A stretch of 64,000 nucleotides of DNA, from the IMG/VR virus record IMGVR_UViG_3300036852_000134, positions 1 to 64,000 of that record; one strand, 5' to 3'. Below, one piece after another: positions 17,785 to 25,248 of this stretch. Below the pieces are notes generated by a model. That model was not told where the DNA came from and did no database searches. It saw only the letters and a program-made list of their open reading frames with translations. How positions within the stretch are numbered: the stretch's first letter is position 1; every line of letters starts with the position of its first letter. A program made the position numbers and the translations under genes. The stretch is from a virus.

Positions 17785-18054
17785 TTAATGACCCCGCCTC
17801 GCAATGCCTTTTCCATGTAGATATAACATGAAGGCAGAGAGTATTTCGTCTCTCTCGTCTTGCGATTTGTCCCACCACTCTTCTAACCACTGCTCCCAAT
17901 CGCCTTTGTGTATTCCCCTGTCTGGGCCTGGCGGTCCGAATGTCCGGACCGCCTTTTGGTGGATTGCGAGAGCCACCAGGACCTCCCCCATAATCTCTTC
18001 TAAGGGGGCCCACCCTCTTGTCATCTCTTCAAGAACGTCTTTGGCGTTTGTCAC
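17785..18054 (-). CDS. Hypothetical protein
   Basis: GTG start overlaps the upstream stop (GTGA at 18051-18054). Confidence 0.5.
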   Translation of the reverse strand: MTNAKDVLEEMTRGWAPLEEIMGEVLVALAIHQKAVRTFGPPGPDRGIHKGDWEQWLEEWWDKSQDERDEILSAFMLYLHGKGIARRGH

Positions 18055-18515
18055 AGGTGTGACCAATCCTGACGCAACCGCTCCAAGTCCTCTCCCGCCA
18101 TCCCCTGGTCTATGAACCACTGCTCACTCCACGGGGGGGCCCACACGTGCCTCTCGTGCCTGACCACCGGCACCTCCTTGATCTCCAGTGCCAGAGCGCA
18201 GGCGACGCGGTGAGCTCCACCTAGAAGCTCACCGTTGGGGTCTACCGGGATGCGCCACTCTGGGATGTCGACGAAGCCTCTGTGGGCCATGGAGGCACAG
18301 ATGGCGGCGGCAGTCTCGATGTAGTGGTCCGTTCCGCTCTTGCCGTCCATACCGAGGTTGAGCTTGGCGTTGGAGGCCTTACGCGCTTCAAGATGCCACC
18401 GGTAGACGCGGACGGCGTCGGGATCATTGCCGGCCAACAGATGCCGGAACAGGCGCCATTTCACCGCTAAGTCGAAACGGCGTGCGGTCACCAATGATGA
18501 TGGCCGCACCCGCAT
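18051..18515 (-). CDS. ParB/Srx-like domain protein
   Basis: IPVDPNGELLGGAHRVACALAL..VPV resembles the ParB DGxHR motif; TGATG-coupled start. Confidence 0.55.
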   Translation of the reverse strand: MRVRPSSLVTARRFDLAVKWRLFRHLLAGNDPDAVRVYRWHLEARKASNAKLNLGMDGKSGTDHYIETAAAICASMAHRGFVDIPEWRIPVDPNGELLGGAHRVACALALEIKEVPVVRHERHVWAPPWSEQWFIDQGMAGEDLERLRQDWSHL

Positions 18516-18898
18516 CACTTCTTGTAGGCAGAGCTGCGTTGCCATGTCGGCAGAAGCGCCTTGAAGTCTGCCGCCTCATCAACAGCAGGAACCCAACCGA
18601 AGCTCTTCACCCTATCGGTCGCACCGCGCCTGAGCAGAAGTGTGCTGCCGGTGGGGCGATGAAGGGCGAACATCGGAGTACGCCCAGGAGGAACAGAGAC
18701 GCCGAACCCGCCCATGGGGTATGTTCTGATTGCGAGCCCTTCAGGCAAACTCCAGAGGCGACCATCAGGTCCGTGGATGGCGATCTCGTCCAAGTCCCAC
18801 TGCCTGAACGGCATGAGCGAGGACGCGCGCACAATCGCAGGTGATGCAATCAGACTTGCAGCACTGATGAGAAAGCGGCGGCGTCCTAATTCAAGCAT
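18515..18898 (-). CDS. Hypothetical protein with twin-arginine-like N-terminus
   Basis: GRRRFLISAASLIASPAIVRA. Confidence 0.55.
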   Translation of the reverse strand: MLELGRRRFLISAASLIASPAIVRASSLMPFRQWDLDEIAIHGPDGRLWSLPEGLAIRTYPMGGFGVSVPPGRTPMFALHRPTGSTLLLRRGATDRVKSFGWVPAVDEAADFKALLPTWQRSSAYKK

Positions 18899-18907
18899 TG
18901 CGCACCT

Positions 18908-22499: not shown

Positions 22500-22620
22500 T
22501 TCTTAGTTCCAGACTTTGGATGCGCTGCTCAAGCCGCCTAATGCGGCTAGTCAGATAGCCTATGACGAAAAATGCCATGGCCAGGAAACCATAGATGGCG
22601 ACTGCATCCCACTTGGTCAT
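22489..22620 (-). CDS. 43-aa single-TM peptide (below ORF-track cutoff)
   Basis: MTKWDAVAIYGFLAMAFFVIGYLTSRIRRLEQRIQSLELRSGR; ATGA overlap with the oxidoreductase stop. Confidence 0.55.
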   Translation of the reverse strand: MTKWDAVAIYGFLAMAFFVIGYLTSRIRRLEQRIQSLELRSGR

Positions 22621-23681
22621 GCGGCCTCGCGTTTCTCAACGAGGCCGATTATATCAACTACCTGCTGCGCTGCCACTGTGGCACAGCCTAGTTTCCCACT
22701 GAATATCCGGATGATGTTGTCGCCGATCAACTCGACTAAGGTTGGACGCCCATCGTCCGCATCTCGACCGGGAAGCACGGCGCGAACCGTCCACATAGAC
22801 CCCACGAATTCAGCATCCCTGAGACCCGGAATGAATTTCACCCCAGCCTCGATGAAATCCTGGACCCTTGTGTGCGCAGGGTTAACCACCAGCCCGCAAT
22901 TCAGGTAGCCCCTCAGTTGCCGAGGAATCGCTGGCCGGAGCCCGACGTTTGCATGGTGGATGGCATGCTTCACATGCCCCATGACATGCAGGTCGGTATT
23001 CCCGTAAGGGTCTAGGCAGCAGAACTCCCCGTCCATGACGACGATGCCGATGCCGCGGAACTTGGAAGGCATCCGCAGCAAGGGCTTCTCGACCACCTCG
23101 AACTGAAACGGCTCCACTCTTGCACCGAGGTCGAAAGCAACCGCGTTGGTGGAAGCGTAGGCGGCGACAACGATTGCATCGAACTTTGAACGCAAGGATC
23201 GTGTTGCCGACTTCAGGTGGACCGTTACACCGGACTCTTGCAGGCGCTGCGCAACGATTGCACGCAAGCGTTGGAGGTCGAGCCGCGCCTCGTCCACCGA
23301 GAGCACCACGTTGACAGCATCCGCGTTGATCATCGTCGGGCTGGCGTCCACGAAGGACAACCCGTGACGCATGCAGAAGGCGACATACTCCAGGCCTGAA
23401 ACCTTGCTGCCTTCCTTGGCGATGGCGTAGTAGTGGCGGCCACCGTCGATGATGGCGTCACCGTACTCAGCACGGAAAGAGGTGAGAGCGGCCTGGCATT
23501 CAGCGACGGTGGCCGCGCTCCTTGGGTAGTGGAATCCCTCATGGGTTCTGGCCTGGTTCACTGCCGATGCCGCGCCCATGACCTCATTGGGCTCGTAGAG
23601 GTGAACATCATGGCCAGCGCGAGCGAGATGGACGGCGGCGGTGCATCCAAAGAGGCCGCCCCCAGCAACACAGACCCGCAT
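22617..23681 (-). CDS. FAD-dependent oxidoreductase (DAO-like family)
   Basis: MRVCVAGGGLFG Rossmann motif, ASAVNQARTHEGFHYPRS, C-terminal FSGK. Confidence 0.85.
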   Translation of the reverse strand: MRVCVAGGGLFGCTAAVHLARAGHDVHLYEPNEVMGAASAVNQARTHEGFHYPRSAATVAECQAALTSFRAEYGDAIIDGGRHYYAIAKEGSKVSGLEYVAFCMRHGLSFVDASPTMINADAVNVVLSVDEARLDLQRLRAIVAQRLQESGVTVHLKSATRSLRSKFDAIVVAAYASTNAVAFDLGARVEPFQFEVVEKPLLRMPSKFRGIGIVVMDGEFCCLDPYGNTDLHVMGHVKHAIHHANVGLRPAIPRQLRGYLNCGLVVNPAHTRVQDFIEAGVKFIPGLRDAEFVGSMWTVRAVLPGRDADDGRPTLVELIGDNIIRIFSGKLGCATVAAQQVVDIIGLVEKREAA

Positions 23682-24382
23682 CACCACTTCCACTGCGGCA
23701 TGTCGAACAGGCAACTCTCACGGTTGGCGACCACCTTGATGCCGCGCTTCATCGCCTCATGGATGAAATACTGGATGCCGGGGCGCTGGTAGACGTACTC
23801 ATTCTCAGCAGCCTGCATGATGCCCCACAGGCCGATCATTGGAATGCCATCAGTCTCTGCGTCCACGATCGACTTCGCGAACATATAGGCGATGCTGCTG
23901 GTGAACTGGCACGGATCGAAGATGCCGTCATGGTTCGGGATCTCGGCGATCCTTTCGCCAACAATGGCCCCATCTGGTCCCTGGACCTTCACCTTCTGGA
24001 GCGTGGACGTGCCCCTGAGTTCCTTCTCGGGATAGAGCCGACCGCCCTTGAAGGACTTAAGCGCCTTCTGGTCTCGCAGCCACACGAACGGCTGCTCACT
24101 CAGATACTTGAGGTATGGGAAGGGCCGGCTCGGGTCCTCCAAGGGAAGGTGGACTTCGAAGACCTCGTCAACGCGCGGCAGCGCCGTCGCGTACTTGCTC
24201 ATTCCGTATGGCGTATTATCCGGAGAGCACGCCAGAATCTTCCAGCTCGCGTCTCCGTAGGGAGCAGCATCCTTAGTCGTCGGATTGCTGCCGACAATGG
24301 CCAAGCCACGAACGGCTGTCTTGGGTGCGGCCGGGAGGACATCCCCACCGGCCGCCTTGGTCTCTATGAGATCATCAAGCAT
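23681..24382 (-). CDS. Putative glycosyltransferase (sialyltransferase/Maf-like GT-A variant)
   Basis: LAIVGSNP..., FTSSIAYM and IGLWGI pattern, similar to the IxGxGPS / TSG / IYLxGxD motifs of GT29/GT42/Maf; start coupled to the upstream DTG protein. Confidence 0.5.
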   Translation of the reverse strand: MLDDLIETKAAGGDVLPAAPKTAVRGLAIVGSNPTTKDAAPYGDASWKILACSPDNTPYGMSKYATALPRVDEVFEVHLPLEDPSRPFPYLKYLSEQPFVWLRDQKALKSFKGGRLYPEKELRGTSTLQKVKVQGPDGAIVGERIAEIPNHDGIFDPCQFTSSIAYMFAKSIVDAETDGIPMIGLWGIMQAAENEYVYQRPGIQYFIHEAMKRGIKVVANRESCLFDMPQWKW

Positions 24383-25248
24383 CAGAGGCCCGTATCCCTC
24401 GGAGCTGACACGTTGACCCAGTCGATATCGAGAAGGCTGGCGCCCCCAGTGTCGTACCCATAGATGCACGGAGTAAGCGCGGTGGAACTATTGCAAGGAT
24501 CGCTGATGATCCCCTTAGGAACGCCGTCCACGTAGAACGTGACCGTTCCGCCCGTGTCGGAGCTGCTGCGGTGCAGCTCGGCTTCCAGGGTCACATAGGT
24601 GTTGTCGGTGGGGGTCACAGTCGTCAACTGCACCGATTGCAGTGTGTCGCCATCGACGGCAAAGCCGTGCCATCCCGTGGAGCCGCCGAGGTTCCAGCCG
24701 ATGCCAAAGGCATTGGTCGCGGCTGCGCCGTCAGCGCTGCCTCCAGTGTCGAATACCGGCATCTCGGCCGAAGTCGTATCGGTGAAGCCGACGAAGACGC
24801 CGTGCTCGCCGCCCGTGTAGATGGACTTCTTGATGCGCGCGCCAAAGCGCAGTCGGCCGGAATGGGCGCCAGGACCCTGGTTGGGTTTCCAGGACAGCTG
24901 AGGACCGACCATGCCGAATGTGGTACCCGCGACAGTTGTCGTGGTCGTGCTCTGCGACGGTGTGAACCTGAACACACCATTCGTGCCGGCGGTAATGAGA
25001 CCCGTCGTACCAGTATCACCTTTGCGGGTGATGAAATACTGACCGGCGGTTCCGGTGTCGCCGAGCAGATCGGCGCCGACACTTGCATAGAAGTCATCGA
25101 AGATGGCGGTGGTGTCAGGAGCGCCAGGCATGACGACTGCGGGCTTGCCATCACCGCCTGCGACGAAGCCGTACGGAGCCAGGACCTGGTCGTCATTGGT
25201 GAGGCCTAGCGCCCGTCGATGGATGCCCTTGAGCATGGACTTAGACAT
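24382..25248 (-). CDS. Putative virion accessory protein, ConA/LamG-like beta sandwich (6 DTG)
   Basis: Thr/Gly-rich, IFDDF, VTFYVDG and LDIDWVNV motifs; AAGGGAA RBS. Confidence 0.6.
   Translation of the reverse strand: MSKSMLKGIHRRALGLTNDDQVLAPYGFVAGGDGKPAVVMPGAPDTTAIFDDFYASVGADLLGDTGTAGQYFITRKGDTGTTGLITAGTNGVFRFTPSQSTTTTTVAGTTFGMVGPQLSWKPNQGPGAHSGRLRFGARIKKSIYTGGEHGVFVGFTDTTSAEMPVFDTGGSADGAAATNAFGIGWNLGGSTGWHGFAVDGDTLQSVQLTTVTPTDNTYVTLEAELHRSSSDTGGTVTFYVDGVPKGIISDPCNSSTALTPCIYGYDTGGASLLDIDWVNVSAPRDTGL

Follow-up and report, generated by a model that had tools for sequence, protein, structure and literature searches.

A candidate cassette for cytoplasmic O-glycosylation of tail proteins in the late operon of an uncultured temperate podovirus

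The IMG/VR virus record IMGVR_UViG_3300036852_000134 is a complete 82,864-bp phage genome with terminal repeats, and the window analyzed here, a single stretch of 64,000 nucleotides with a GC content of about 61%, is its first 64 kb. The phage is a temperate, uncultured podovirus. In its late arm, a block of 13 minus-strand open reading frames (ORFs) runs from position 25248 to 17785, and with moderate confidence we read this block as a phage-encoded cytoplasmic O-glycosylation cassette that acts on tail proteins at the tripeptide Asp-Thr-Gly (DTG). This reading is supported by gene content, predicted folds, conservation, the solubility of the enzymes, motif statistics, and phyletic pattern, from which we infer the chemistry. 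The block consists of the following genes, listed from its head.

24382..25248, minus strand: DTG288, 288 residues, a predicted lectin-fold, tail-associated protein with six DTG motifs
23681..24382, minus strand: Maf233, a predicted minimal Maf/sialyltransferase-fold transferase
22617..23681, minus strand: FAD354, a flavin adenine dinucleotide (FAD)-dependent oxidoreductase (Pfam DAO, 3.8e-16)
22489..22620, minus strand: TM43, a 43-residue single-pass membrane peptide (KD19 2.02)
22182..22499, minus strand: hyp105, a small protein with a homologue only in the related loci L006/L033 (66% identity) and no family match
21470..22177, minus strand: GT235, a predicted DxD GT-A-type glycosyltransferase (phrog_1962, 2.3e-11)
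20682..21473, minus strand: HNH263, an HNH homing endonuclease with a C-terminal helix-turn-helix (phrog_374, 4.8e-67; HTH_23)
20007..20678, minus strand: MT223, a class I S-adenosylmethionine (SAM)-dependent methyltransferase (Methyltransf_25, 3.4e-7; Methyltransf_11, 1.6e-6)
19576..20007, minus strand: hyp143, a conserved protein whose gene has a GGAGG ribosome-binding site
18908..19579, minus strand: Ploop223, a P-loop kinase-like protein with a Walker A motif
18515..18898, minus strand: Tat127, 127 residues, with a twin-arginine-type signal peptide (N-terminal R-R-R-F-L, then a hydrophobic stretch)
18051..18515, minus strand: ParB154, a ParB/Srx-like domain protein (matching the N-terminal region of phrog_498, 7e-4)
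17785..18054, minus strand: hyp89, a doubtful ORF at the end of the chain, with no homologues in related loci

An earlier note on this DNA had described the chain as mostly joined by TGATG and ATGA overlaps and as lying between tailspike and terminase, apart from the replication genes, and both descriptions hold. All of the ORFs were found where the note had placed them. When gene starts are assigned by ribosome-binding sites and by the geometry of stops and starts, overlaps of 1-4 nt join the genes at 8 of the 12 junctions: TGATG at DTG288/Maf233, Maf233/FAD354, MT223/hyp143, and Tat127/ParB154; ATGA at FAD354/TM43 and GT235/HNH263; and GTGA at hyp143/Ploop223 and ParB154/hyp89. None of the other four exceeds 11 nt: these are an 11-nt overlap at TM43/hyp105 if a GTG start is used, and gaps of 4 nt at hyp105/GT235, 3 nt at HNH263/MT223, and 9 nt at Ploop223/Tat127. 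A consensus scan found no convincing minus-strand terminator inside the block, with one weak site in the TM43 gene. By Pfam, the flanks of the block are a tailspike with a Pect-lyase domain and the small terminase TerS (Terminase_2), and the block sits in the late/structural arm, away from the recombination genes. The large terminase, TerL, has no Pfam match and was assigned by tblastn to annotated large terminases, the nearest being those of Acidovorax AP1, Bordetella BPP-1, and Caulobacter podoviruses (37-41% identity). The labels of FAD oxidoreductase, SAM methyltransferase, HNH protein, and DxD glycosyltransferase, first given by eye, are those returned by the profile matches listed above, and an NCBIfam scan gave nothing beyond generic flavoprotein and methyltransferase matches.

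Maf233 is the candidate initiating protein O-glycosyltransferase. It had been called sialyltransferase-like, and its AlphaFold2 (AF2) model (pLDDT 88) agrees, with a fold of the CstII/Cst-I/Maf type. In VIA, an exhaustive structural comparison, the model matches the Maf protein of Magnetospirillum (5mu5) with a Z of 10.0, aligning 171 residues to the central domain (271-500 of 632), followed by Cst-I (2p56, Z 9.4), MptE HPPK (8sd5, Z 8.6), and TPK (Z 8.1); the top Foldseek match is CstII (probability 0.99, E 2e-3). The kinship with Campylobacter CstII/Cst-I (GT42; 1ro7, 2p56) is one of fold, at 13-16% identity, and CstII differs in acting on lipo-oligosaccharide rather than protein, but the shared fold suggests a CMP-activated acidic sugar as donor. 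No Pfam family, PF01973 included, matched Maf233 at E <= 0.1 in either a 262-residue or a 233-residue form, and in the ESM Atlas PF01973 was no more than a distant lead (0.83, 34% of members). Maf233 has 171 homologues in metagenomes, all unnamed; H78, R103, T161-S162-S163, and Q199-R200 are invariant and are, by conservation alone, candidate catalytic residues. GT235 is predicted to be a GT-A-type DxD glycosyltransferase, with D96 and D98 invariant in 26 homologues in addition to the match to the phrog_1962 'glycosyltransferase' profile, while no Pfam match was obtained for any of the 26. Sequence-only PDB searches with single proteins returned nothing informative. All of the cassette enzymes are predicted to be soluble, without transmembrane (TM) segments, and TM43 is the sole product of the cluster with a hydrophobic stretch of TM grade.

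The proteins on which such enzymes could act are suggested by the distribution of DTG. The proteome contains 39 copies against 7.1 expected, making DTG the most over-represented tripeptide (z 12, the next being 5.5), and permuted tripeptides of D, T, and G occur at expectation. In the outer tail proteins DTG reaches about 70 times chance expectation, and 37 of the 39 copies fall in five late proteins, DTG288 and the following four.

5489..8890, minus strand: tail nozzle (tail tubular protein B homologue), 1133 residues, with 20 DTG against about 0.5 expected (phrog_376, 3.2e-114)
8897..9541, minus strand: tail adaptor (tail tubular protein A-like), 214 residues, with three DTG (phrog_394, 1.8e-35)
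10097..10408, minus strand: 103-residue protein whose gene comes right after that of the major head protein, with three DTG (phrog_18004)
29738..30130, minus strand: 130-residue late protein encoded upstream of the fibre/spike gene, a candidate acceptor with five DTG

The motif is absent from the major head protein, the portal, the internal transglycosylase protein, and the tailspike, and occurs once in a 4297-residue polyvalent protein. In the globular proteins the flanking sequence differs from one DTG site to the next. The nozzle, whose tblastn matches include 'tail tubular B' of pelagiphages, is the main candidate acceptor. Ten nozzle homologues (about 51-78% identity, by tblastn) carry 13-19 DTG each, and the sites are 69% conserved against a background of 30% (permutation p < 5e-5). 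Between a retained Asp and a retained Gly, Thr was counted 138 times and Ser five times, and new DTG sites appear in lineage-specific insertions. Homologues of the 130-residue protein (33-45% identity) have 4-6 DTG each. In phages that lack the cassette, namely Burkholderia KL4, pelagiphage HTVC024P, phiV10, and a distant IMG/VR contig, nozzles and adaptors have 0-2 DTG. An O-glycosylation tag would be expected to have just these features: short, independent of context, bearing a hydroxyl, tolerant of a Thr-to-Ser change, placed on outward-facing proteins, and restricted to a clade whose members all have a Maf-like transferase. Near distant Maf233 homologues (L016-L026, a Microcystis phage, and Tetraselmis viridis virus S20), no other clearly enriched tripeptide was found in a crude ORF set. 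A search of literature full text returned nothing relevant on a DTG motif in phages or on Maf-type glycosylation of phage tail proteins.

DTG288, taken by the earlier note as the DTG-rich protein heading the chain, keeps that position, but judging from its model it is most likely no enzyme and instead a tail component with a concanavalin A (ConA)-like lectin fold. The AF2 model (pLDDT 63) is confident for the C-terminal part, residues 110-283, and of low confidence for the N-terminal 90 residues. Its jelly-roll matches span 173-200 residues at VIA Z 12-14.3 and comprise PL7, GH16, legume lectins, and SO2946, among them PL7 lyase 2cws (14.3), peanut lectin (13.6), SO2946 (12.9), and the CBM2 of the phage J-1 Dit (12.4); matches in BFVD are to Mtd-N, tail-repeat, and ConA-like phage proteins (best E 5e-12). 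All six DTG lie in loop or coil segments. DTG288 is therefore a candidate acceptor and/or targeting partner. A partner acting in trans is plausible because Maf233 lacks the flanking substrate-binding domains of full-length Maf, and on the models DTG288 may be that partner as well.

The cassette is conserved in related viruses. A single-sequence scan of viral contigs with Maf233 was uninformative, and an alignment-based query recovered the related loci: at least 13 IMG/VR contigs of 24-101 kb with the whole region, and about 30 more with part of it. Gene order, determined by tblastn of window proteins against the recovered contigs, begins with the five-DTG small protein and continues with a variable fibre or spike, hyp143 (in some), DTG288, the Maf-like gene, and, in most, the FAD enzyme; it then proceeds through one to three GT235 paralogues, the methyltransferase, the P-loop kinase, and the ParB-like gene to TerS (in some), TerL, and the portal. 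This neighbourhood survey, one of the checks proposed in the earlier note, places a conserved sugar-enzyme module upstream of TerS/TerL, at a constant position flanked by tailspike/fibre genes on one side and terminase-portal on the other. When the portal served as seed, a further scan gave 53 loci, and all those with enough upstream sequence keep at least the kinase and ParB-like pair before the terminase. The conserved core is the Maf-like protein, one or more GT-A enzymes, the methyltransferase, the kinase, and the ParB-like protein. In 11 of 13 relatives the DTG288 gene immediately precedes the Maf-like gene, and an MT223 homologue is present in 12 of 12 full cassettes; hyp143 has homologues in L004-L006, L008, L010-L012, and L014, in some of which it lies upstream of DTG288. 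The proposal that all members of the chain form one pathway stands for this core but not for HNH263, Tat127, TM43, or hyp89, which are not conserved, and the FAD gene is missing from 4 of 13 cassettes (L003, L008, L011, and L015).

Relatives also carry sugar genes that the present cassette lacks. By Pfam, these include a UDP-galactopyranose mutase (4.5e-63), a nucleoside diphosphate (NDP)-sugar epimerase/dehydratase (1.6e-49), five FkbM methyltransferases, one Methyltransf_24 protein, and a B12-binding radical-SAM enzyme; a short-chain dehydrogenase is usually paired with the FAD enzyme. By their family matches, these extra genes make up the repertoire of a variable glycan locus. The fibres that stand in place of the tailspike in relatives have 10-35 DTG. 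In four of them (L003:5213-7255, L007:6072-8042, L008:1-2769, and L004:6643-7815), 18-35 DTG lie in helical-looking repeats. The occurrence of DTG-rich fibres at the position of the present DTG-free tailspike points to exchange of the receptor-binding module.

HNH263, Tat127, and TM43 are variable passengers outside the pathway. The position and copy number of the HNH gene vary among relatives, and in L008 it interrupts the methyltransferase gene; HNH263 is a mobile passenger. TM43, Tat127, and hyp89 have no counterparts in the related loci. The P-loop and ParB-like genes abut there, and the insertion of Tat127 between them is specific to the present genome; Tat127 is likely a periplasmic moron unrelated to the cassette. 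The ORF hyp89 is doubtful as a gene because its coding statistics are weak (GC of 0.61/0.40/0.57 at the three codon positions, whereas real genes have about 0.75-0.85 at the third) and a plus-strand terminator-like hairpin lies inside it.

The kinase-like and ParB-like proteins are the least familiar members of the core. The P-loop kinase label finds support in an invariant G-x-G-K-S and many invariant Arg residues in Ploop223, but its family matches (AAA_33, UMP-CMP/NMP-kinase-like) are weak and sub-threshold. At least 613 homologues exist, some named 'broad-specificity NMP kinase' by JGI, and no match was found at E <= 1e-3 in 50,697 phage records by tblastn, a BLAST-level search. A sulfotransferase role was considered and rejected, as a canonical G-x-x-G-x-G-K-S/T Walker A favours a kinase. 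The ParB-like label is similarly mixed: residues 67-119 of ParB154 weakly match the ParB-type N-terminal region of phrog_498 DNA methyltransferases (7e-4), and an invariant G-G-A-H-R region in 13 homologues resembles by eye, as G-G-A-H-R-x-A, the Srx/ParB signature, but there is no Pfam match in any of the 13. PDB profile searches with both families gave nothing informative.

The whole ParB154 domain (about 150 residues) recurs in the 970-residue cellular protein P0243 (residues 521-669, 32% identity), where it follows a Capsule_synth domain (PF05159, KpsC/KpsS-type), and it likewise follows the Wzx-type Polysacc_synt export domain of the 1061-residue cellular protein P0245; both proteins come from public assemblies. 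In the phage proteins P0241 and P0242, kinase and ParB-like proteins are fused to each other. The capsule and Wzx-type fusions mean that the ParB-like domain, which had been offered as a pointer to DNA, is no such pointer here, and together with the mutual fusions they place the pair with polysaccharide chemistry. The domain organization suggests that the two proteins probably act together, and that the ParB154-like domain may represent a hitherto undescribed accessory domain in polysaccharide biosynthesis. FAD354, by its family and its distribution, appears to be a tailoring enzyme, and its presence in the clade is facultative. A reading of the FAD enzyme and methyltransferase as an MnmC mimic, or as the glycine-cleaving step of thymidine hypermodification, was rejected as the main explanation, there being no 5-hydroxymethyldeoxyuridine (5-hmdU) route and the FAD gene being facultative.

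How might the cassette work? In the mechanism that we propose, Maf233 would put the first sugar on the Thr hydroxyl of exposed Asp-Thr-Gly in the nozzle, the adaptor, DTG288, and the two small proteins, and in relatives also in the long DTG-studded fibres. The donor would probably be a CMP-activated acidic sugar of the host, such as Kdo or a nonulosonate; Maf enzymes are able to use CMP-Kdo and CMP-Neu5Ac (PMC11339370; bioRxiv 10.1101/2020.06.03.131540). One to three DxD GT-A paralogues would then lengthen the sugar using host or phage-made NDP-sugars, and the SAM methyltransferase(s), with the DAO-type FAD enzyme where present, would tailor it. The P-loop kinase and the ParB/Srx-like protein, which is predicted to bind nucleotides, could serve in phosphorylation or nucleotide handling of the glycan. 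All of this would take place in the cytoplasm during tail assembly, the genes being expressed with those of morphogenesis, and the outcome would be a lineage-variable sugar coat on the tail that could shield the particle, make it more stable, or adjust its adsorption. The earlier note had proposed that the genes build an adduct on virion proteins and tailor it at assembly time; after folds, glycosyltransferases, sugar genes, and the DTG motif were examined, this is the best-supported reading, and it is one that we infer.

A more specific form of this proposal is that DTG is a strict O-glycosylation sequon, read by a stand-alone minimal Maf-type transferase combined with swappable GT-A, methyltransferase, redox, and kinase modules. 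We put this forward tentatively. The idea that such a system sets a lineage-specific glycan at dozens of defined tail sites, across a widespread clade of temperate podoviruses, is offered with the same reserve.

Several points weigh against protein glycosylation as the function of the block. Maf233 lacks a Pfam match and has middling structural scores, and the related fold includes the pyrophosphokinases MptE (Z 8.6) and TPK (Z 8.1). No CMP-sugar (nonulosonate) pathway is encoded. The tailspike is exposed and yet has no DTG, and in the relatives' fibres the motif is periodic, mostly 11, 15, or 20 residues apart, so that it could be structural there. The association of DTG with the cassette amounts to a single evolutionary event, because all members of the clade have both, and the cassette-free control phages are distant. 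Like the kinase, DTG288 had no match in the 50,697 phage records. The FAD enzyme, the kinase, and the ParB-like protein were assigned their roles by guesswork, and the case for glycosylation is built from genes in a clade without a cultured member.

One alternative is that the product of the cassette is a glycoconjugate off the virion, such as host lipopolysaccharide (LPS), capsule, an envelope glycan, or a soluble glycoside, with DTG being an unrelated structural or assembly feature. We consider this rather unlikely, as we do the purpose that it would imply, namely receptor masking or superinfection exclusion, at the cytoplasmic face, during infection. O-antigen and capsule loci typically contain GT-A enzymes, FkbM methyltransferases, UDP-galactopyranose mutase, and NDP-sugar epimerases, and the fusion of the ParB-like domain to Capsule_synth and Wzx-type proteins in cells points the same way; the phage is temperate, and the regular spacing of DTG in the relatives' fibres is compatible with a structural repeat. 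However, the genes are translationally coupled within the late operon beside the terminase, away from the integrase and immunity genes, and the cassette has no flippase, polymerase, Gtr-type, or other membrane enzyme. The nearest fold of its conserved lead enzyme is a protein O-glycosyltransferase, and an off-virion product would leave the scattered, conserved DTG sites in globular proteins, and their Thr-to-Ser changes, unexplained.

A second alternative stays with the virion: either modification is confined to fibre/lectin-type proteins, or DTG marks docking sites on the tail that are read by DTG288 (or another factor), the sugar being attached elsewhere. The carbohydrate-binding-type fold of DTG288 and its place next to the Maf-like gene would suit such a reader, as would the alignment of Maf233 to only residues 271-500 of the 632-residue 5mu5 chain, which makes a partner in trans plausible. 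We nevertheless regard this as improbable, since DTG288 itself carries conserved DTG motifs and tolerance of Thr-to-Ser change in the tripeptide is more to be expected of a hydroxyl acceptor than of a docking site.

The alternative raised in the earlier note, DNA hypermodification, has lost support and is unlikely; the version in which the kinase, ParB-like protein, glycosyltransferases, methyltransferase, and FAD enzyme modify phage DNA just before packaging we consider highly improbable. It draws on the proximity of the terminase, on the weak match of ParB154 to the ParB-type N-terminus of phage DNA methylases, and on the occurrence of P-loop kinases, ParB-like proteins, GT-A enzymes, and flavoenzymes in known hypermodification loci; glycosyltransferase clusters near ParB, terminase, and structural genes have been described (bioRxiv 10.1101/2023.12.21.572611). 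Against it, six-frame profile searches of the complete 82.9-kb genome, run with positive controls, found no ThyA (PF00303), ThyX (PF02511), TET/JBP (PF12851), or C5-methylase (PF00145). All hydroxylated pyrimidine acceptors known from DNA glycosylation or thymidine hypermodification are made by these enzymes (PMC13326640; bioRxiv 10.1101/2023.12.21.572611), and therefore no known acceptor of this kind can be made. The phage is temperate, with a tyrosine integrase (55161-56216), an ERF annealing protein, and a YqaJ exonuclease, and its genome has no polymerase-sized replication genes or replicative polymerase module. The kinase has no relative detectable by tblastn in deposited phages, thymidine-hypermodifying ones included, the ParB-like domain is tied to polysaccharide proteins in cells, and the DTG motif would be left unexplained.

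Phage virion glycosylation is known from mycobacteriophages, and Maf-type O-glycosylation is known from flagella. The proposed cassette shares with the Maf flagellin O-glycosyltransferases (Magnetospirillum magneticum Maf, 5mu5) the fold of the catalytic domain, at the Z of 10.0 given above, and the cytoplasmic Ser/Thr O-glycosylation of protein bound for an extracellular structure. It differs in that Maf233 is the 233-residue core only, with no flanking substrate-binding domains and no PF01973 match, and in that it is encoded by a phage and its proposed acceptors are tail proteins with an exact tripeptide; flagellin glycosylation, to our knowledge, proceeds without a strict sequon. Extension by further glycosyltransferases, and methylation, are possible in both systems. 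In Aeromonas, the first sugar on flagellin is extended by further glycosyltransferases and the flagellin is also methylated (PMC7874193, PMC9290775).

In mycobacteriophages, Freeman et al. reportedly described in 2023 the glycosylation of virions by phage-encoded glycosyltransferases, in cluster F phages such as Che8. The parallel with the proposal made here from the genes is that a phage modifies its own virion proteins by means of glycosyltransferases whose genes lie in or close to its structural genes. The targets in mycobacteriophages are capsid and tail tube, whereas here they would be tail proteins, with a Maf-like lead enzyme, a kinase/ParB-like pair, and a candidate sequon, in podoviruses with Gram-negative-type hosts; tblastn with GT235 returned no mycobacteriophage. 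The DNA sugar clusters of the MT/5mYOX/GT type (bioRxiv 10.1101/2023.12.21.572611) and the ThyA-homologue/arabinosyltransferase type (PMC13326640) are alike in having multiple phage glycosyltransferases and lineage-variable glycan chemistry, sometimes with ParB-like proteins, kinases, and terminase nearby, but their acceptor-makers (ThyA homologue, 5mYOX/TET, C5 methylase) are absent from the complete present genome.

A GT235 homologue (36% identity, annotated as a glycosyltransferase) is encoded by the siphovirus Tetraselmis viridis virus S20 (NC_020840). At 26950-32533, between its capsid and head-closure genes, this virus has two 'alpha-2,3-sialyltransferase' genes, two glycosyltransferases, and a methyltransferase. 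The block adjoins a 188-residue Pro/Ser/Lys-rich protein. Unlike the present phage, virus S20 has no kinase/ParB-like pair and no DTG enrichment, and its sialyltransferase-like genes were not retrieved by Maf233; its block is possibly a second, independent virion glycosylation cassette.

If DTG is indeed such a sequon, the cassette would be a compact, portable, tag-defined protein-glycosylation system so far undescribed for phages of Gram-negative bacteria. If the proposed reading of the block is true, sugar-coating of the phage particle reaches beyond mycobacteriophages and giant algal viruses and is a conserved trait of an abundant clade of uncultured temperate podoviruses. Metagenomes contain hundreds of distinct sequences homologous to the kinase and to the Maf-like protein. 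With a glycan on its nozzle, adaptor, and fibres, a phage could differ in how it adsorbs, which hosts it infects, how stable it is, and how defence or immune systems recognize it, and an exact tripeptide tag with a soluble 233-residue enzyme would be a potential glyco-engineering tool. The analysis also provides function by association for two unannotated families, the ParB/Srx-like domain of capsule/Wzx-type proteins and its partner kinase.

Several further observations concern the surroundings of the block and the rest of the genome. On the plus strand at 25546-26460, between tailspike and DTG288, lies a gene for a 304-residue class I SAM methyltransferase (Methyltransf_25/12/11, about 2e-8), with a 20-nt overlap between the 3' end of the gene and the tailspike stop. 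No other sizeable gene of the late arm is on the plus strand. The gene runs antisense to the late operon, so that late transcription has to pass through it in antisense, and none of the related loci examined has a counterpart. At the other end of the block, two overlapping plus-strand ORFs (17398-17598 and 17595-17735) with good codon-position GC contrast encode hydrophobic peptides of 66 and 46 residues and are followed by a strong terminator-like hairpin with a T-run (17930-17953, plus strand). Together these form a small antisense unit between cassette and TerS, possibly a moron expressed in lysogeny.

Outside the window, the 4297-residue ORF (genome 69885-82778, minus strand) carries a PF18760 polyvalent-protein ADP-ribosyltransferase domain (1.3e-8) and LPD38 (PF18857, 3.8e-18), and its product is a giant polyvalent protein, probably packaged and injected. 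This ORF had raised the suspicion of an N4-like phage, which was rejected since TerL groups with BPP-1, AP1, and Caulobacter podoviruses and the ORF is a polyvalent protein. In the early/middle region, a gene at 36659-37660 (minus strand) encodes a 333-residue N6/N4 DNA methyltransferase (PF01555, 5.3e-12), the only DNA-modifying enzyme recognised among the scanned genes. A megablast search with a 14.6-kb region gave no DNA-level match to deposited phages, and in a scan of 185,579 species genomes the sole match was a 2.9-kb fragment of a Rhodospirillaceae metagenome-assembled genome. Among the relatives, tblastn matches to TerL are split by insertions of 0.3-1 kb in L036, L037, and L059, as are those to the major head protein in L037, L038, L053, L063, and L081, and the cassette methyltransferase is likewise split in L008/L050, which suggests introns, inteins, or homing-endonuclease insertions in essential genes.

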